IMG/VR virus record: IMGVR_UViG_2711768056_000005
Strand: one strand, 5' to 3'
From: a virus
Lineage: Duplodnaviria; Heunggongvirae; Uroviricota; Caudoviricetes
DNA: 64,000 nt
The translations under genes were made by a program, and so were the position numbers. The notes under the pieces were generated by a model. The model worked only from the letters and a program-made list of their open reading frames with translations. It had not been told where the DNA came from and made no database searches. The first letter of the stretch is position 1. Every line of letters begins with the position of its first letter. Shown one piece after another: positions 8,200-53,931 of this stretch.

Positions 8200-8835
8200 T
8201 CAGATATCGGCCTTATTCGGAATTTTATCAGCCACCAGCGGCAATAAAGCCCTGGCCATCTTATGAACCAATAGTGCATCAATAATGCCAAGCGTATGCC
8301 CTGGCTTAATGTTTAATGCCGCCTCAAGGTGACATCTTTCCAGGCCACTTTTCTCGACTTGTTTATGATGATCTGGCGTAATAACGTCGCCCAAAACACG
8401 GCTAATTTTTTCTCGTAATTGCTGGGTGCCAGCACACTTGATCGCTGTATCGTGGAGACGGTTAACCAGTTCGCGATAAACATGCGGCTTAATGCGGATA
8501 CGTTCACCGGTGACGCCCTTTCCTGGCGCTGGCACCGAACTATCCGGATAGTTGCCAGCCTCGTAAGCTACCCGCAGCCAGTGCATGAATGTTTCAGTGG
8601 ACACACAACCACAGTCCACATCGATTTTTCCGCGTTGCTGTTCCAGCCACTGCTCAAAATTCAATCTACACGTATTACTTTCATGTTGCTCTTTTTGTCT
8701 CAAGGCCAGCATCTGCTGGGCTATTTCCAATACTTCATCTGCCGTATATCCAGCACCGTGACCATACATTTCGATACGGGAAATAATCTCTGATATACGC
8801 TCTTCAGTGATTCTGGTCATTTCTTTTTGCGCCAT
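8200..8835 (-). CDS. Hypothetical protein (211 aa)
   Basis: ORF in the coupled minus-strand early block; no recognisable motif. Confidence 0.5.
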   Translation of the reverse strand: MAQKEMTRITEERISEIISRIEMYGHGAGYTADEVLEIAQQMLALRQKEQHESNTCRLNFEQWLEQQRGKIDVDCGCVSTETFMHWLRVAYEAGNYPDSSVPAPGKGVTGERIRIKPHVYRELVNRLHDTAIKCAGTQQLREKISRVLGDVITPDHHKQVEKSGLERCHLEAALNIKPGHTLGIIDALLVHKMARALLPLVADKIPNKADI

Positions 8836-9191
8836 TTCTTTTCACATTCCTTAGTCCATTTTTCAATGTTCATTTTGGCAATATCAGTCATTCCATCACC
8901 TAAGAAATACTTTTTCCGGTATGTCTTGCACTTAAACCACACTACAACAGCCACCAGCCAGAAAATAAAAGGCCATACAGCAATACCAACGACAGCCGCG
9001 ATAAAGCCCAATAGCCATAAATGAAGCTCTCCAACTTCTGTTTCCGGCAATATTCTTAAAGAATTAAACAGCAGGCTGAACGAATGGTCGTATGCATTGG
9101 CAGTATAAGACATGCAATCCATATAATTAAAGTCATAGCCTGCGGCTGCCGCCCATAATGGGCGGTCAAGAAAATGTTTTAGTGTCATCAT
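8817..9191 (-). CDS. Small membrane protein (124 aa) with a Lys-rich C-terminus; AT-rich
   Basis: One long hydrophobic segment (LWLLGFIAAVVGIAVWPFIFWLVAVVVWF) then KCKTYRKKY...KKWRKKK; lower GC than neighbours. Confidence 0.45.
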   Translation of the reverse strand: MMTLKHFLDRPLWAAAAGYDFNYMDCMSYTANAYDHSFSLLFNSLRILPETEVGELHLWLLGFIAAVVGIAVWPFIFWLVAVVVWFKCKTYRKKYFLGDGMTDIAKMNIEKWTKECEKKWRKKK

Positions 9192-9197
9192 ATAAAT

Positions 9198-9491
9198 TTA
9201 AGGTTCAGACCAGTTATCTTCAATAGCAATGCTTAATCTTTGTAGCCATTCTGCTAATTTCAGCATTGCTTCTCTTTCGCTTAAACCACGAGGAAAATCA
9301 TCAAGCGAAATTGTTGGCTTGAATCCCCCGCAATTATCCATTTCAACTGTCAGATTTTGTTCCAGCACGGTATTTCTTACGCGGCTATTGTGCCGGAGCA
9401 AATATACTGAGAGTGATTTATTGGTTTTGTGGTCTAGCTTATATTCGGTAAGTATCATCTGGCTTTTGCCATGATTATTACCTCTCCACAT
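9198..9491 (-). CDS. Hypothetical protein (97 aa from internal ATG); AT-rich
   Basis: Internal ATG at 9491 has RBS GTGAGGT and follows the stop of a 40-aa upstream peptide. Confidence 0.4.
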   Translation of the reverse strand: MWRGNNHGKSQMILTEYKLDHKTNKSLSVYLLRHNSRVRNTVLEQNLTVEMDNCGGFKPTISLDDFPRGLSEREAMLKLAEWLQRLSIAIEDNWSEP

Positions 9492-9498
9492 ACTTACC

Positions 9499-9621
9499 TC
9501 ACTTAATAAAACAACTCCATGCGTAGTTGATGATTTTTTCCCACGTAATATAAATCTGCACTCCGGCAGTAAAACCAAAGCCAACAATTGCTGAAAAAAT
9601 CAAAACATTTACTTTTGACAT
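9499..9621 (-). CDS. Possible 40-aa hydrophobic peptide (below the track length cutoff)
   Basis: MSKVNVLIFSAIVGFGFTAGVQIYITWEKIINYAWSCFIK; stop lies 8 nt before the next ATG. Confidence 0.3.
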   Translation of the reverse strand: MSKVNVLIFSAIVGFGFTAGVQIYITWEKIINYAWSCFIK

Positions 9622-9669
9622 TATAAATTTTCTCTCGGTGTCGTAGGTGATAGCACCATAATTGATAAT

Positions 9670-9903
9670 TTAGTGAGTTAGCAGTTCCATTTTTTTGATG
9701 ATTTCCGCATGAGCATCATCGTTATCAACACTTAGCTCGTTTAATGCTTCTCGCACTACATCAACTTCTTCAGGCTGAAAGAAGTCGTCGCGGTAATCAC
9801 CAAATAGAACCGAAACCAGCCTGCCACCAGCAACATCAAGATTGGCGCTAACAGGTGGCTCTTTGCCATCCTCAAATTCGACTACAAAAGTTAATTTTCC
9901 CAT
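9670..9903 (-). CDS. Hypothetical acidic protein (77 aa)
   Basis: ORF with RBS in the coupled block. Confidence 0.45.
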   Translation of the reverse strand: MGKLTFVVEFEDGKEPPVSANLDVAGGRLVSVLFGDYRDDFFQPEEVDVVREALNELSVDNDDAHAEIIKKMELLTH

Positions 9904-9979
9904 CGTTACCCCCAGAAGATAAAAATAGCGGCAATCGCCATAGCTACGCCTACAATCGCAAATGCTTCAGGCCAGCTTA

Positions 9980-15092: not shown

Positions 15093-15109
15093 ATATTTAT
15101 TAGAGCAAT
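15093..15109 (-). promoter_or_regulatory. C1 operator match (16/17), overlapping the stop of the HAD phosphatase gene
   Basis: Minus strand reads ATTGCTCTAATAAATAT; identical 17-mer to the site at 34809..34825. Confidence 0.6.
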
Positions 15110-46759: not shown

Positions 46760-47269
46760 ATGGGGCACAATAACACTAAGGGAAACCGTAAATTTATTAA
46801 GGGCCGCTATACTGCCAACGCGGCCAAAGGCGAACGACTGGTATCTTCTGAATTCCAGCTCACTTTTGCAGGCCATGAAGATATCAGCGTACTGGTTCGC
46901 ACGTCGCAAATTCCTGAAATGACCCGCGAGGATGTGGAGGACTATGGTCCGAATGGTGTGAAGTTCAACCAGCACGGTCCAATTCGAAACTCTGGGGAAA
47001 TCCAGGTCCAGTGCGTGGAGACTATCGAAGGCGATATTCTTCAGTTCATTAAAGATCGCATTGCGGCGAAGGACTATGTTGATATCACGATGGCTGCGAC
47101 CCCTGAATCCAAATCTTCCGGGGTTAATGCTGTGACAAAAGCTGCTACAACAATTGAAATGTTGGACTGCAAAATCTACAGTGATGCAATCGACTTTAGT
47201 ACCGAAGATGTGACTGCCGCTGTGCGCCCGTCACTTCGTATCGTTTACAACTGGATTGAGTGGGATTAA
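46760..47269 (+). CDS. Putative tail-associated structural protein (169 aa)
   Basis: RBS AAAGGA; followed by a strong terminator. Confidence 0.4.
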   Translation: MGHNNTKGNRKFIKGRYTANAAKGERLVSSEFQLTFAGHEDISVLVRTSQIPEMTREDVEDYGPNGVKFNQHGPIRNSGEIQVQCVETIEGDILQFIKDRIAAKDYVDITMAATPESKSSGVNAVTKAATTIEMLDCKIYSDAIDFSTEDVTAAVRPSLRIVYNWIEWD

Positions 47270-47288
47270 GAGTCATCCCTTGTATTTT

Positions 47289-47312
47289 AAAGCTCCTTCG
47301 GGAGCTTTTTTG
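47289..47312 (+). terminator. Rho-independent terminator
   Basis: AGCTCC-TTCG-GGAGCT followed by TTTTTTG. Confidence 0.75.
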
Positions 47313-47352
47313 CGCTTAAATTATGCCGGTATAGATAGATTTTGAGCATGTT

Positions 47353-47649
47353 ATGGAAATTGATTTTTCATACTCTCCTGAGACGATAGAAAGAAGATTC
47401 GAAATAATTGGATGCATAACTATTTCAGATGAGCATTATTGGGTTCTCTATGATGCCAATACATGGTTATGTGCCTTAGCAGAATGTCAGCCATCGTTAT
47501 GTGTAGGGGAGGGGGCTTTTCGACATAAGGTGCTGGCTACACTTGAAGTGAACACGTTACGATATTGGTGTGTAGAAATACTTAGTGATAACAAAGAATT
47601 GCATTTATTATTGCTGAATAAGTGTGCTTCTCTGCGCAGAAACGCATGA
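47353..47649 (+). CDS. Hypothetical Cys-containing protein (98 aa)
   Basis: Isolated ORF between two terminators. Confidence 0.4.
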   Translation: MEIDFSYSPETIERRFEIIGCITISDEHYWVLYDANTWLCALAECQPSLCVGEGAFRHKVLATLEVNTLRYWCVEILSDNKELHLLLLNKCASLRRNA

Positions 47650-47775
47650 GAAAACCCAACCGCTCTCCAGGAATTATCAGAAGAATATATGCGGAAAGTT
47701 ATAGCTAGCTATTGAAAAGCTAAAGTAGATCGGTTAGATTTGCCTTACTCATCTACCATGTGTAGAAAGAGCGAT

Positions 47776-47818
47776 CGAACCCGATACATAGCAATATGTG
47801 TCGGGTTCAGCTTTTTTA
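47776..47818 (+). terminator. Rho-independent terminator
   Basis: GAACCCGAT-N14-GTCGGGTTC followed by AGCTTTTTTAT. Confidence 0.6.
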
Positions 47819-48280
47819 TGTCCCAAGTGCTCTTTTTCTGCTTTGTTTGAGTGTTCTGATTTTACTGTCATAGGTTACAACATAGGCTGTTTTGAGAAGC
47901 CAATAGTCTCTACGTGCGGATAGCACAACAACGTAGTTTTCACACTCATTCCAGATTACCCACTCTTCAGTTGGTCCTCGTCTTTCAGACCAACATGATA
48001 TATCGCAATGGTTATAATTCCTTATCATATGCGCGATCCAGCGAATTCGCTTGCACCGTTCAAGATCGGGTATACGTTCTTCTTCTTTTTTTCCCTCTGA
48101 TACTAAATGCCAAAATCCGAACTCTTTCCCATCATATTCCGGTGAATAACGTAATCGAACAGGGAGACCCTTAAACGTTATATTAGAGATTAAAATGTCT
48201 TCTCTGACAACATCATATACATCGTCTATATACTCTTGCCAACTTCCATTGAAGTACAATAAATCTGGCATTTGAAGCAT
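47816..48280 (-). CDS. Hypothetical protein (154 aa), second gene of an AT-rich two-gene cassette
   Basis: ATG overlaps the upstream stop (TGATG) with GGAGG RBS; Trp/Cys/Tyr-rich. Confidence 0.5.
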   Translation of the reverse strand: MLQMPDLLYFNGSWQEYIDDVYDVVREDILISNITFKGLPVRLRYSPEYDGKEFGFWHLVSEGKKEEERIPDLERCKRIRWIAHMIRNYNHCDISCWSERRGPTEEWVIWNECENYVVVLSARRDYWLLKTAYVVTYDSKIRTLKQSRKRALGT

Positions 48281-48984
48281 CAGCGAGCCTCCCACACGAA
48301 AATATTAAATTTACTTTCTGTTGGAAGAGTGCTTTTTAGTAACTCCCTGTTTGTATGTGATTTTATCCTGTTTATGACTTGGATTTTTCCCGCGTTGCTA
48401 TTCATTCCTCGATGAACGTAGCCTAACGCACCAATGAAAAGATCCGTTAGCTGCAATTGTTGCACTTCATGAGATCGTATATGTTGAATTCTGTTTATCG
48501 ACTCATGATTGTAATCATAGCGATCATTGTGAAGAACCCCTCTTAATTTCTCAATTTTTTCAATACCTAAAGTATCTTTTATATCTAGGTAGATATTGTA
48601 TGTGTTGTTACTTTCTATTATGTTTTTTAAGACATAAAAAAACATCTTATAATAGAAAGTATTATGATCTTGATGGAATCGAGCATGGTCCAGTTGCTCT
48701 TTATCAGGAACAACAACACCTCTAAAGCGCAATGCTGGGTTGCTGAAGAAGTAATCTACGACATCTAAGTAAAATTCAACTTTGGACGCAGATACTTTAG
48801 TCCACTTGATTTCGAAATCAGGTTTTAGATTGTGTTTTAATTTTAATTCCTTGATGTCTCTAGCAATTTTTTTTGTGATAGAGCCAGGACACCAAAGTGC
48901 ACCCAATACCATGACTTTATTATGATCATTTAGTAGGTGACAGGATTCATCGCAGAATACATTAAATGTTCTTCGGTTCAACAT
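48280..48984 (-). CDS. DUF3800-like protein (234 aa), first gene of the AT-rich cassette
   Basis: N-terminal VFCDESCH and C-terminal LQLTDLFIGAL resemble the DUF3800 signature by eye. Confidence 0.45.
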   Translation of the reverse strand: MLNRRTFNVFCDESCHLLNDHNKVMVLGALWCPGSITKKIARDIKELKLKHNLKPDFEIKWTKVSASKVEFYLDVVDYFFSNPALRFRGVVVPDKEQLDHARFHQDHNTFYYKMFFYVLKNIIESNNTYNIYLDIKDTLGIEKIEKLRGVLHNDRYDYNHESINRIQHIRSHEVQQLQLTDLFIGALGYVHRGMNSNAGKIQVINRIKSHTNRELLKSTLPTESKFNIFVWEAR

Positions 48985-49132
48985 GTTAACTCCACTTATT
49001 GTTAGGTAGAATTGTCCGTTAGTTGTTTATTAATTGCAATAAAGGGACGTCCAGATTTGACAACTATGTCCTCTTACTAGGACACCTATGAGTTTGCCTC
49101 ATGGCAAACTAGAGGTGTTGAAAGTATGCATG

Positions 49133-49149
49133 GTTATAATTAGAGCAAT
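49133..49149 (-). promoter_or_regulatory. Weak C1 operator-like match (12/17), 3 nt downstream of the repL stop
   Basis: Minus strand reads ATTGCTCTAATTATAAC; conserved ATTGCTCTAAT half intact. Confidence 0.3.
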
Positions 49150-49152
49150 TCA

Positions 49153-49998
49153 TTACCCTCTGAATCCTGCCGGTATACCCCATTGTTCGTTATCTTTATT
49201 TTTGGCTAAAACCGCATTAAGAGCTTCGTTTACCGTCATGCAATGCGGCAGATTATCGAAGTTTGATATCCCGCCAATATCAGGAGAACGCTTGTTCTTC
49301 AGGAAAGCATATTTCCGCGAAGCCGCCTCTACTTTCTGCTTGAACTCATGTTTTTGAGCGCGTTTTTTGGATAACCGCAGATTGTCTGCCTTTGCTTTTG
49401 CCTCAGCGATCCAGGAAGTCAAATTTTTGAGCCTGGTCGTTCCGGCACCGCCGGAAACTGATCTTTTTGTTTTTTTAATTTGTGACTTCTTATTCTTTAT
49501 TGCCACGTCATCCTGACAGGGGGAGGGGGTATCATTTTGACATGGGGGTGTGGATAAAAAATTAAATAAAGCCAATGTCTTAGCGAGAACAGCTTTAACC
49601 TTGGTTGCCGCTGAAGAGATCTTTAATTTGCTTTCAATCAGCGCATTTTTGGCTTGTTGTGCGAAGGCCAAAAAGGATGGTGTAAACCGGTACAGGTTAG
49701 CGCGACGTTCATGGTGATCGCCGATAACAATCTCTACAGACAGAATTCCTTTGTTTACAGCTTCACGGAATGCACGAACGACGGTTGATTGGCTATAACC
49801 AGTTTCTGCCGCGATCAGGCGGTGAGGCTTGTGAATGAAGTATTCACTGGTTGTTGCCGCGAGATTTGCACATTGCGACAGGATATGCCCGGCGCTACGG
49901 GATAGACCGGAGTGTGTTACAAAGCAGGCCAATTCATAGCCAGAAAAAGTAAAATCGCTCATCGTTATACAGCTCAGGAAAGTGACTTTAGCCAGCAT
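49153..49998 (-). CDS. repL: Lytic replication protein RepL-like (281 aa; start may be the internal ATG at 49962)
   Basis: Directly downstream of kilA in the C1-controlled operon. Confidence 0.55.
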   Translation of the reverse strand: MLAKVTFLSCITMSDFTFSGYELACFVTHSGLSRSAGHILSQCANLAATTSEYFIHKPHRLIAAETGYSQSTVVRAFREAVNKGILSVEIVIGDHHERRANLYRFTPSFLAFAQQAKNALIESKLKISSAATKVKAVLAKTLALFNFLSTPPCQNDTPSPCQDDVAIKNKKSQIKKTKRSVSGGAGTTRLKNLTSWIAEAKAKADNLRLSKKRAQKHEFKQKVEAASRKYAFLKNKRSPDIGGISNFDNLPHCMTVNEALNAVLAKNKDNEQWGIPAGFRG

Positions 49999-50027
49999 TA
50001 CAATGCTGGTGGTTCTTACTACGTTTG

Positions 50028-50828
50028 TTAGCGCGTTGCCGCGACAGGTACCAGCACACCAGCATCAAGCAATCGCTTCATAAGCCACTGCTGACCTTTG
50101 CCGGTTATACGAGTCGTGAAAGAAATCCTGCTTCCATTGCTTGTATCGATCACGGTTTCTTTGAGGGTGAAGTACCCACGGGATATGTATTCTTGTTTTG
50201 GGACGTTCCTGCGCTCACCGGTTGCGATCAGAATTCCGTTATCACGCAACCAGGTGAAGAGATAGTTTTGGCCCAGGCCGAGCACTTTGGCATAGTTGCC
50301 GATTAGAACCCCGCTGGCGGTAGCAACGCGTTCGGCAAATTCGACTTTAGGGGCATCCAGAAGCATTTTTTGCTCCAGCCGTTGCTTTTGCTCTGCCAGA
50401 TCGGCAGCCAAACGGAGAGCTTCAGGGAGACTCTGCGGAATAGCAGGTTGTAATCTTCCGGCTCGATAGTCGATAAATGTCTGGTTTACCTTCAGCCGAA
50501 ACGCGGGAGAAATCCAGCCTGCGTACTCCACTGCGAGCAATTCATGGGCAAAAGTGCCGCCGCCACGGCCTTCGAACGAAACTATGCAATTCTGCATAGT
50601 TTCTTTTTCAAGCTCTTCGATGAGCTGTTTAGCTGACAGCGTTCTTAGCCATTGAGCTGGCGCTTTATGGGCACCGAGTCCGCTCGCTCTGTGTAGAGCA
50701 TTAAGGTTGTAACGGCCAACGCGGTCGGTCGTAATTTCAACACCACAAATAACGGGCAGAGTGGTTGAAGGATCGACATTTTGATGAAGGTTTGATATAT
50801 TCATATCCGCATTGAATGTTTGTTGCAT
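50028..50828 (-). CDS. kilA: KilA (266 aa): KilA-N domain plus a C-terminal domain shared with Ant
   Basis: N-terminal domain (...RYNLNALHRASG...) of KilA-N type; C-terminal 140 aa colinear with the Ant C-terminus; preceded by an operator. Confidence 0.75.
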   Translation of the reverse strand: MQQTFNADMNISNLHQNVDPSTTLPVICGVEITTDRVGRYNLNALHRASGLGAHKAPAQWLRTLSAKQLIEELEKETMQNCIVSFEGRGGGTFAHELLAVEYAGWISPAFRLKVNQTFIDYRAGRLQPAIPQSLPEALRLAADLAEQKQRLEQKMLLDAPKVEFAERVATASGVLIGNYAKVLGLGQNYLFTWLRDNGILIATGERRNVPKQEYISRGYFTLKETVIDTSNGSRISFTTRITGKGQQWLMKRLLDAGVLVPVAATR

Positions 50829-52289: not shown

Positions 52290-52400
52290 ACCCGCTGCTA
52301 AACAGGTGGCAGGACGTGACGGGGTTAGCAGACTGGCGATTGTGAAACCAGCAGGCCGAAGCCTCCCCATCACGCCCCACCATAATTTGGGCGTAACGCG
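52290..52400 (-). ncRNA. c4: c4-like antisense repressor RNA region of the immunity module
   Basis: Non-coding stretch between the operator at 52569 and icd; GATTGTGA at 52338-52345 is complementary to TCACAATC at 52265-52272 beside the icd RBS. Boundaries not determined. Confidence 0.4.
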
Positions 52401-52568
52401 GTTTTACGGACACAAAAATACCGCAATATCGGATATCTGCGGCTGTCCGCACAATCATTCAGGCTGCTAAACCCGGTCGCAGAATTTGCTACGACGGCGA
52501 AACTATAAGCCTGAACGATTAAAAGGTCAATATGATGCGAAAAGATAGCATTCGCGACTTAAAAATAC

Positions 52569-52585
52569 AAATTTATTAGAGCAGG
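52569..52585 (-). promoter_or_regulatory. C1 operator match (15/17) upstream of the c4-icd-ant operon
   Basis: Minus strand reads CCTGCTCTAATAAATTT. Confidence 0.6.
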
Positions 52586-52866
52586 TGAGTGTCGTGCAAT
52601 AGATGTATTATTTGTGATGAAAAATAATGCAGAGGGATATTGTTACTTTAAGATGGATATCAATAGTCGATACATAAATTAAGTTAGCAATAAACTATTA
52701 ACTTAAGAAATAATGCAGGTGGTGAACTTATCTCTGACTTTTCAGCTATACACAATAAGTTAGGGATAGCTTATAAAAAGTTGATTATTTGATATAAGTC
52801 AATGGGAGTATTCTTGTTTACTTTCCGTTCTCGTGGTAACTTCTCGCCGGTTTTTGTTTTTCTGGG

Positions 52867-53388
52867 ATGATTCTTATGTCTAAAAAGTATACTTTATGCG
52901 CTCTTGTTGTATCTGCAATTCTTCTTTCTGGGTGTCAATCTAGCGGTGCTGATTATGCTGCCGATGTTTATGATACCGCTCAATTGAATTCGAAGCAGGA
53001 AACAAAGACAGTCAATATTATCTCTGTGCTTCCTGCTAAAGTGAAAGTTGATAATAAAGCTAATAAAGAAGCGGCACAGACATTTGGTGCGGTACTGGGA
53101 GCTGTTGCTGGGGGCGTTGCCGGTTATAATGTTAAAGGCACATCGACACTGGGTGCTGTAGCTGGCGGTACTGGTGGTGCGGCTCTTGGTGCAGCGGCTG
53201 GTTCTTTGGTTAGTGATAAAACAATTGTTGAAGGTGTTTCACTGACTTATAAAGAAGGAACTAAGGTGTTCACTTCAACTCAAGTTGGTAAAGCATGCCA
53301 GTTTACAACGGGGCTTGCTGTGCTTATTTCAACTAAAGATAATGAAACTCGAATTCAGCCAAATGCTACTTGTCCAGAAAAGAAATAA
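52867..53388 (+). CDS. Glycine-zipper lipoprotein (173 aa)
   Basis: Lipobox ILLSGC, then GAVLGAVAGGVAGY...GAVAGGTGGAALGAAAGS glycine-zipper segment. Confidence 0.55.
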   Translation: MILMSKKYTLCALVVSAILLSGCQSSGADYAADVYDTAQLNSKQETKTVNIISVLPAKVKVDNKANKEAAQTFGAVLGAVAGGVAGYNVKGTSTLGAVAGGTGGAALGAAAGSLVSDKTIVEGVSLTYKEGTKVFTSTQVGKACQFTTGLAVLISTKDNETRIQPNATCPEKK

Positions 53389-53391
53389 TTT

Positions 53392-53931
53392 ATGAATAAA
53401 ATTATTTTATTTCTAATCTTTTCTACGTTTAGTGTAGGCACTGCCTTGGCTAACTCGTTGCAAAGTCAAATTGCTGCTATTGCTCAGGCGGAAAATGAAG
53501 GGCGAGCTAAAGAGCAGCAAGCTGAGGATGCCAGAAAAGAACTTATTCGCCAACAAGCACAAGCTGAACGTATTAGAAGAGAAAAAGCAGCATCTGCCGC
53601 TGCTGCACGCGAAAAACAGCGTGTTGCTGCAGAAAATGAACGTAGAGCGAAACGAGAAGCCGAGCTAGCAAATGACAAGAAGCGAGATCAAGCTTATGAG
53701 GATGAGCTTCGCAAGCTGCAACTCGAAAGCATGAAACTCGAACTGCAAGCAAAAGCGGCTCGTGTCCAGCGAGAAAACGATTTTATAGAGCAGGAGTTGA
53801 AGGAGAGAGCAGCTAAGACAGATGTAATTCAGTCTGAGGCTGATGCAAATAGAAATATTTCTACAGGAAGTAAAGATTTACTGCAAAGCGAAGGAAAAGC
53901 TAGAGAGAAGAAAGCTAGCAGTTGGTGGTAG
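53392..53931 (+). CDS. Secreted Lys/Ala/Glu/Arg-rich coiled-coil protein (179 aa)
   Basis: N-terminal signal peptide then low-complexity charged repeats; starts 4 nt after the lipoprotein gene. Confidence 0.5.
   Translation: MNKIILFLIFSTFSVGTALANSLQSQIAAIAQAENEGRAKEQQAEDARKELIRQQAQAERIRREKAASAAAAREKQRVAAENERRAKREAELANDKKRDQAYEDELRKLQLESMKLELQAKAARVQRENDFIEQELKERAAKTDVIQSEADANRNISTGSKDLLQSEGKAREKKASSWW

Follow-up and report, generated by a model that had tools for sequence, protein, structure and literature searches.

Which function is carried by the two small AT-rich genes that lie directly downstream of repL in some P1-like phage-plasmids, and whether it is a replication function, as their name implies, is the question raised by a copy of these genes in a 64,000-nucleotide stretch of caudoviricete DNA (IMG/VR record IMGVR_UViG_2711768056_000005; the whole of this stretch is referred to here as the window). 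The first-pass annotation, made from the sequence alone, had described a compositionally foreign two-gene cassette and proposed that it benefits the host or acts against other phages. The cassette is rlfA-rlfB of phage P1, named rapA-rapB in phage P7, and nothing of substance differs between the copies. When positions 47600–49200 (1601 bp) are compared with phage records by megablast, the identity is 98.8% to P7 (GenBank AF503408) and 98.2% to P1 (GenBank AF234172), the window copy thus being slightly nearer to P7, and the order repL, C1 operator Orlf, rlfA, rlfB and convergent pmgF is common to all three. The cassette is therefore already known, the pair having been annotated since 2004 and left without characterisation, and the basis of the name "replication-linked function" is position only.

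We lean towards regarding rlfAB as an accessory, horizontally acquired module of a defence, abortive-infection or toxin-antitoxin-like kind and not as a replication function. The first-pass interpretation is thus partly supported: its direction was right, and the cassette was already known, both as rlfAB and as PDC-M04, a candidate defence system in PADLOC. Both models of this candidate match end to end (PDLC04353 to RlfA with E = 8e-96, PDLC04355 to RlfB with E = 1e-52), and the two genes are adjacent, in A-B order, and overlap by 1 nt. PDC-M04 is itself a computational candidate without a described test or mechanism, and the anti-phage function of rlfAB is one that we infer. What is new here comes from the distribution of the pair. 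In a one-genome-per-species scan, homologues were found in at least 581 genomes, and the counts given below are taken from the best 80 loci, which span more than 12 phyla. The two genes are an obligate pair (80/80 loci), approximately 54% of the loci are linked to restriction-modification genes, and the cassette is present on approximately 20% of repL plasmids. This suggests that rlfAB is one copy of a very widespread module, which is often embedded in restriction-modification operons.

The cassette within P1-like elements

The GC (guanine plus cytosine) content of the cassette is 36.6%, compared with 47.3% for the window, which corresponds to z = −3.59 against all segments of the same size. 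Segments with GC as low as this make up 0.56% of the total, and the cassette forms the deepest trough of the 64 kb. GC at third codon positions (GC3) is 0.34 in rlfA and in rlfB, against 0.44–0.55 in repL, kilA, bplB and pmgG, and the profile thus bears out the view that the cassette is compositionally foreign. The accompanying claim that its GC is lower than that of its neighbours holds for these four genes and fails for pmgF, which has a GC of 38.7% and a GC3 of 32% and is AT-rich like the cassette itself. Similarly, its placement between the structural operon and repL is right on the repL side and has to be amended on the structural side, where the equally AT-rich pmgF intervenes. For pmgF, searches gave neither a family match nor a PADLOC model match; it does not belong to the two-gene module elsewhere, and it is lost along with rlfAB in other P1-like elements. 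In a published comparison of P1-like phage-plasmids, eight regions stand out as highly variable and low in GC, and rlfA-rlfB-pmgF is variable region 5 among them (PMC9603915). Two further AT-rich troughs with short open reading frames (ORFs) occur in the window, at ~8600–9970 (GC ~0.39) and ~52400–53700 (GC 0.34–0.39), and may represent additional cargo of an accessory kind.

With repL-positive elements defined by repL at ≥95% identity, there are 21 such phage records, 8 of which carry the cassette, and 516 such PLSDB plasmids, of which 101 do. The cassette is therefore not a core gene set of all P1-like phages that shares their composition, the finding that the first-pass annotation had named as speaking against its own proposal; it is not conserved together with repL and is not a member of the P1 lytic replication module. 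Where the cassette does occur, it can be strictly conserved, with 100%-identical copies on many E. coli and Salmonella plasmids and a 100%-identical protein on 112 contigs. In pSvP1 and pTZ20_1P, rlfAB is replaced by other genes (PMC6906374). Taken together, rlfAB is absent from most P1-like elements and dispensable for P1 lytic growth, since knock-down by CRISPR interference leaves the plating efficiency of P1 unchanged at ~1, with values of 1.3 for rlfA and 0.88 for rlfB (PMC10695390).

These results bear directly on the reading implied by the name, in which RlfA would process the transcript or R-loop through repL/oriL in order to prime or regulate lytic replication, with RlfB as a cofactor, and both would be switched on with kilA-repL once C1 repression is lifted. 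Such a role would be in keeping with the location of rlfAB immediately after repL/oriL, in the same orientation and with a C1 operator between them, with the type 2 RNase H fold and catalytic carboxylates predicted for RlfA, and with rlfA and rlfB transcripts that change together with repL in P1vir infection; oriL, as Sternberg and Cohen reportedly found in 1989, requires transcription through repL. On the other hand, some 80% of repL-carrying P1-like plasmids do without the cassette and keep a near-identical repL, the knock-downs just described have no effect on plating, and P1-derived PAC (P1-derived artificial chromosome) vectors, which carry repL up to the base before rlfA, replicate from oriL (misc_feature in the P1 record). 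Moreover, all 80 homologous loci are without replication genes nearby, and many of them, in many phyla, lie in restriction-modification operons. We thus consider a replication role very improbable. The database names of RlfB, "replication protein" (PHROG 16230 and RefSeq) and "oxidoreductase" (NCBI), have no domain match behind them, and for its misnamed homologues (entries P0002, P0007, P0008, P0012 and P0016) both names look like propagated annotation errors.

The repL-bplB interval, in which the cassette resides, holds other genes when rlfAB is absent. Three of the four sampled P1-like plasmids without the cassette carry an 81-residue ORF together with hokD (Table 1); other contents are an 81-residue ORF with a 198-residue ORF, an Ail/Lom outer-membrane protein (SJ46) and an IS605-family tnpB (RCS47), and further P1-like elements have genes of unknown kind in this position. 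PADLOC models gave no match to the alternative cargo of SJ46, RCS47 and 673R5, and we therefore call this interval a variable cargo slot and not a defence hotspot. The repL-bplB slot of P1-like phage-plasmids is thus an exchangeable cargo site, occupied by rlfAB, hok, Ail/Lom or IS605 genes.

RlfA, RlfB and their homologues

The identification of the first gene as DUF3800-like is confirmed by Pfam, in which RlfA matches DUF3800 (PF12686) with E = 3.5e-14 and 54.2 bits, above the gathering cut-off of 21, residues 8–189 aligning with profile positions 1–148 of 149. Both motifs of the family are present, the N-terminal DE as D12-E13 (within FCDESCH) and the C-terminal QxxD as Q178-L-T-D181. Among 81 sequences, D12 and E13 at the end of strand 1, D134/D137 at the end of strand 4 and D181 in the QxxD helix are 99% conserved; Q178 is invariant in a 38-sequence alignment and falls below the 90% cut-off over the 81 sequences. 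Around the catalytic DE, residues C11, C15, H16 and C32 are near-invariant, and many Lys, His and Tyr residues are also conserved. From their conservation, the three cysteines and the histidine may form a metal site; the literature consulted on DUF3800 contained no mention of one.

The AlphaFold2 model of RlfA has a predicted local distance difference test score (pLDDT) of 88.5, and its best fold matches are type 2 RNases H, followed by PIWI domains. In this model, the fold is of the RNase HII/H2 type and the D-E...D...D carboxylate set is intact. Sequence and profile searches of RlfA against Pfam (RNase_HII) and the PDB gave no meaningful match, and RlfA is thus a fold relative of type 2 RNase H and not a member of that family. 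The same fold has been proposed for the DUF3800 domains of retron type VII and of Cas12a2-associated proteins (PMC7736814, PMC10910872). Relatives of RlfA form 5467 clusters at 90% identity, and the protein is still 52–55% identical in Bacteroidota, Nitrospirota and Burkholderia.

The Pfam match does not extend to the second protein: RlfB and 23 homologues, searched singly or as a profile against Pfam, NCBIfam and the PDB, gave no match. In the RlfB model, which is a confident one (pLDDT 92), the chain begins with a long helix, continues through short ones and an antiparallel sheet of four strands, and ends in a further helix at the C terminus. Its fold matches are dominated by one RNase toxin superfamily, of the colicin D/RelE type, and include YafQ, HigB1, RelE, MqsR, BrnT, YoeB and T4 RegB, with modest scores. 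Foldseek against the PDB found no significant match for RlfB, colicin D (probability 0.57) and HigB1 (0.33) being among the best, and we have therefore lowered the RNase-toxin fold from assigned to suggestive. Among 230 sequences, H58 is conserved in 100%, R75 in 99%, F56 in 98%, R69 in 96% and R78 in 93%, and W81, W97 and T131 are also near-invariant. The H58/R69/R75/R78/F56 set is compatible with an RNase of the colicin D/RelE type, and the model is suggestive of RlfB being an RNase toxin. An exhaustive profile search with RlfB yielded 1780 cluster representatives at 50% identity, almost all of which are stand-alone proteins of 150–190 residues.

The two genes travel together. A homologue of rlfB directly follows rlfA on the same strand in every one of the 80 loci. 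Stop and start codons usually overlap, by 4 nt at 37 loci, by 1 nt at another 12 and by 8 nt at a further 10; two loci contain a frameshifted copy. RlfA-RlfB is thus an obligate, translationally coupled pair across bacterial phyla, which include Bacteroidota, Nitrospirota, Chloroflexota, Cyanobacteria, Acidobacteriota, Desulfobacterota, Verrucomicrobiota, Lentisphaerota, Bipolaricaulota, Calditrichota, Ignavibacteria and Gammaproteobacteria. Identity to the P1 proteins is higher for RlfA (mean 52%) than for RlfB (36%), and this holds in 78/78 loci. In Methylomonas sp. 11b (L009/L010, 10699–10872), the gene that follows the rlfA homologue is called with a product of only 57 residues and lies within an hsdMS...hsdR operon; it is possibly a decayed rlfB.

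The geometry of rlfAB is consistent with that of antitoxin-toxin operons, the larger gene coming first and stop and start overlapping in ~70/78 loci. A pure plasmid-addiction or post-segregational-killing module, in which RlfB would be a stable RNase toxin and RlfA its antidote, with no anti-phage role, would explain this order, overlap and size of the genes, the RelE/colicin D-like fold matches of the RlfB model, the presence of hokD in the same slot in three of the four sampled plasmids and the occurrence of the module as mobile cargo beside integrases. It sits less well with RlfA itself, which at 234 residues, highly conserved and enzyme-like, is atypical as a labile antitoxin, with the presence of phd-doc in P1, or with the embedding in chromosomal restriction-modification operons, a setting more often occupied by defence genes. 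Since abortion of phage infection is also known from many toxin-antitoxin modules, addiction and defence are not exclusive. Addiction is plausible for rlfAB and compatible with defence; as the whole of its function, we think it unlikely.

The embedding in restriction-modification operons is extensive. Type I hsd genes occur in the available flank of 33/80 loci, always on the same strand as the pair, and at 15/80 the embedding is strict, hsdM/S preceding the pair and hsdR following it; when only loci with ≥5 kb on both sides are considered, hsd genes are found in 18/36. Type III genes, mod (with a DPPY motif) and/or res, flank the pair at nine further loci, both of them being present at 6–7 of these, and one more locus (L072) has a long hsdS upstream, which brings the total to ~43/80 for types I and III. 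By a rough estimate of our own, the linkage to be expected for a random gene is of the order of 1%. Other immediate neighbours are MmeI/Eco57I-type enzymes, GmrSD, AbiEii-like ATPases, mad5 and pAgo. The closest non-P1 copies include one in Enterobacter ludwigii (87% identity), where a Rac-like (lambdoid) prophage has the pair between its integrase and its end; others neighbour an integrase, in Burkholderia and in an integrative mobilisable element of E. coli, or adjoin symE in Klebsiella. The pair is thus mobile cargo with a preference for restriction-modification operons of types I and III and for sites beside integrases. A reverse transcriptase is located beside it only in isolated loci (L003 and L029). 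The first of these, a dense defence island on an integrative element of Algoriphagus pacificus (L003, 6183–17617), contains in order hsdM/S, a reverse transcriptase, the rlfA/B-like pair, hsdR, an unknown gene and pAgo (Piwi), the reverse transcriptase ending 23 nt upstream of the DUF3800 gene.

Such strict same-strand embedding between methylase/specificity and restriction genes, in both type I and type III loci, is also what would be seen if the pair were an accessory of the adjacent restriction enzyme, modulating it in restriction alleviation or establishment control, in which case the P1 copy would be a stray without independent function. Many copies, such as those of P1, Klebsiella, the Enterobacter prophage and the integrative element of E. 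coli, are without restriction-modification genes in their vicinity and yet intact and highly conserved, and the identical protein on 112 contigs likewise does not suggest a stray. We give this possibility little credence, and the accessory module of a defence or toxin-antitoxin-like kind continues to be our preferred reading.

Layout, control and a possible mechanism

The features of the locus are collected in Table 1. The first-pass description of a coupled minus-strand gene pair with a TGATG overlap and a ribosome-binding site is accurate: the rlfB ATG and the rlfA stop codon have one base in common (cgcTGATGctt), and Shine-Dalgarno sequences are located 7 nt 5' of the rlfB ATG (GGGAGG) and 6 nt 5' of the rlfA ATG (GTGGAG). 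The program that lists ORFs starts rlfB at a GTG (47816–48295), upstream of the annotated ATG.

Table 1. Features of the rlfAB locus in the window and of the alternative cargo in related plasmids
Feature	Position	Strand	Description
rlfA (P7 rapA)	48280–48984	minus	234 aa, DUF3800 protein
rlfB (P7 rapB)	47816–48280	minus	154 aa from the annotated ATG at 48280; family without a Pfam model
pmgF	47353–47649	plus	98-aa ORF, convergent with rlfB; same variable region as rlfAB
Hairpin/terminator	47777–47808	T-run on plus strand only	14-bp GC-rich stem between convergent pmgF and rlfB
rlfA leader	48985–49132	minus	predicted promoter PrlfA, 8-bp hairpin and possible Shine-Dalgarno-masking hairpin
PrlfA, predicted weak sigma-70 promoter	TTGCAA 49034–49039, 17-nt spacer, GACAAT 49011–49016	minus	P1 annotation, transferred by alignment
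8-bp hairpin in rlfA leader	~49090–49109	minus	AGTTTGCC-ATGA-GGCAAACT
C1 repressor operator Orlf (former Op55; Op(rap) in P7)	49133–49149	minus	ATTGCTCTAATTATAAC; annotated as protein_bind in P1 and P7
81-aa ORF + hokD downstream of repL	3866–4448 of L096–L098		NZ_CP122909, NZ_MH844525, NZ_CP102674

At the 3' end of the cassette, the first-pass annotation had proposed a terminator at 47776–47818. The stem is there, and the fold z-score of 47650–47815 is −4.2; its T-run is on the plus strand, and the hairpin therefore mainly terminates the pmgF transcript and would serve rlfB at best as a weak bidirectional terminator. At the other end, the weak operator-like site noticed at 49133 is exactly the annotated C1 operator, which is labelled "monovalent C1-controlled operator Orlf; former Op55" in the P1 record. 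Orlf starts 3 bp past the repL stop codon and is identical in the window, P1 and P7. The first 11 bases of ATTGCTCTAATTATAAC agree with the C1 operator consensus, and its five mismatches all lie in the 3' half, and a consensus search allowing ≤3 mismatches misses it. The same search finds 12 sites elsewhere in the window (for example at 15093, 31287, 34809 and 50898), where 0.43 would be expected.

The predicted promoter PrlfA lies ~95 bp downstream of Orlf in the P1 record, scores only 8/12 and was not called in a promoter scan of the region. A promoter overlapping the operator was also considered and rejected, no acceptable −35 element being visible by eye at 16–18 nt. In the 3' part of the leader, UUCUACCU pairs with the rlfA Shine-Dalgarno sequence AAGUGGAG in a predicted hairpin that could permit translational control. 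The fold z-score of the leader, −2.5, is only moderately better than that of shuffled sequences, and the leader shows no variation across the window, P1 and P7 from which covariation could be judged. Rfam models, including the DUF3800-associated motifs (Weinberg 2017, drum and skipping-rope), gave no match in 47000–50500 at E ≤ 10, nor did these motifs in 20 homologous loci at the gathering score. With no Rfam match and this leader score, we dropped the idea of a DUF3800-associated structured RNA for rlfAB. The sole Rfam match in the 20 loci is a group II intron (RF00029, 63 bits; L088, 65–140) directly upstream of an rlfAB homologue in Bacteroidales.

From the annotated C1 operator, rlfAB may be repressed in lysogens and its expression tied to lytic development. 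If it is induced with the lytic genes, exclusion of competitors, addiction or a role in the lytic phase would account for this no less readily than the protection of lysogens. One could thus envisage a function against host or competitor nucleic acids that is expressed only after C1 inactivation, either as an anti-defence nuclease acting on RNA:DNA hybrids, such as the multicopy single-stranded DNA of retrons or the complementary DNA made by reverse transcriptases, or as an mRNA-processing RNase similar to T4 RegB. Most homologous pairs are, on the other hand, chromosomal and in restriction-modification operons, the home of defence and not of anti-defence genes, and the genes are dispensable for plating on a laboratory host, albeit one without most defence systems. 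A lytic-phase function of this sort strikes us as improbable.

Under the preferred reading of rlfAB as a defence or toxin-antitoxin-like module, a mechanism can be sketched. A nucleic acid associated with the invader would be recognised or cut by RlfA, the most plausible candidates being an RNA:DNA hybrid and a structured RNA. The effector would be RlfB, as an endoribonuclease of the colicin D/RelE kind that needs no metal and is kept inactive in complex with RlfA until the trigger arrives. Once triggered, RlfB would cut tRNA or mRNA, leading to a growth stop of the infected cell or of a competing element. In P1, rlfAB expression would rise on induction through the C1 operator and through transcription continuing from kilA-repL, and the phage-plasmid would benefit via competitor exclusion or addiction.

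Several points weigh against this interpretation. First of all, the fold evidence for RlfB, which comes from model comparison, is weak. Second, RlfA evolves more slowly than RlfB, the reverse of what is expected of a conserved effector and a fast-evolving sensor; RlfA being the more conserved partner, the roles of sensor and effector could therefore be swapped. Third, a C1 operator suits a lytic-phase function better than the protection of lysogens, and the P1 copy adjoins no restriction-modification gene, its neighbours being repL and pmgF. Finally, a literature search gave no mention of PDC-M04 and no experiment on defence by, or toxicity of, PDC-M04/rlfAB, and other PADLOC candidates that have been tested worked in 4/8 cases in one study (PMC12881386) and in 0/2 in another (PMC12409345).

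Comparison with known systems

Each of the two proteins can be set against a better-understood family. The type 2 RNases H (RNase HII, H2A and HIII) share with the RlfA model the RNase H-like fold and the D-E-D-D carboxylates; identity is only 7–13%, and RlfA adds the Cys/His residues and the QxxD helix. The toxins of the BECR type (colicin D, CdiA-CT and RelE-ParE) weakly resemble the RlfB model, with modest fold scores and no sequence similarity, and RlfB has in addition an N-terminal part of ~50 residues and a C-terminal helix. The partners also differ, a BECR toxin being paired with a small DNA-binding antitoxin, whereas the upstream partner of RlfB is an enzyme-like protein of 234 residues.

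At the level of the locus, the closest analogy is with PrrC, an anticodon nuclease sited between hsdS and hsdR of type I loci. By this analogy, the rlfAB homologues may follow the same genomic logic as PrrC/RloC, that of a latent nuclease module between hsdS and hsdR on the same strand, and RlfB, were it a tRNase similar to colicin D, would also act in a like manner. The site that these homologues share with PrrC suggests a back-up role for when restriction fails. PrrC is a single protein, in which an ABC-ATPase is combined with the nuclease. The Rlf proteins, by contrast, show no homology to PrrC/RloC, and neither an ABC-ATPase nor an anticodon nuclease domain was found in either of them; furthermore, the pair is embedded in type III systems as well, and the P1 copy and many others have no adjoining restriction-modification genes. 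A bolder version of our interpretation is that rlfAB is the model-phage copy of a widespread two-protein immune class, in which RlfA senses RNA:DNA hybrids of the invader or the state of the adjacent restriction enzyme and licenses RlfB, the representative of a new family of colicin D/RelE-like RNases, the pair acting as a back-up layer in type I and type III operons of many bacterial phyla and as a more widespread, two-component analogue of PrrC. We put this forward tentatively, as possible and rather doubtful.

Whatever its function, the P1 copy offers a useful entry to these questions. P1 is among the most used phages, and its rlfA and rlfB genes bear a 20-year-old, position-based name that has spread in databases. 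From this copy one can ask whether RlfB represents a new RNase toxin family and what places defence modules between the genes for modification and those for restriction. The remaining comparison is with other DUF3800 proteins. Retron type VII and the TPR-DUF3800/Csx32 proteins of Cas12a2/a3 and Cas13 loci share with RlfA the DUF3800 domain and a defence context. The conserved Q of QxxD, retained in RlfA and its 38 aligned homologues, is missing from the retron-type proteins, and the RlfB partner is specific to the DUF3800 subfamily of RlfA. Membership of retron type VII was rejected, since 47000–50500 contains no reverse transcriptase ORF and no Rfam retron or DUF3800 RNA, and no CRISPR array, non-coding RNA or reverse transcriptase adjoins rlfAB in P1. 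The P1 copy, native to E. coli, non-essential and 1.2 kb in size, is thus the easiest entry to the function of DUF3800, which in turn bears on retron type VII and on the accessory proteins of Cas12a2/a3 and Cas13.

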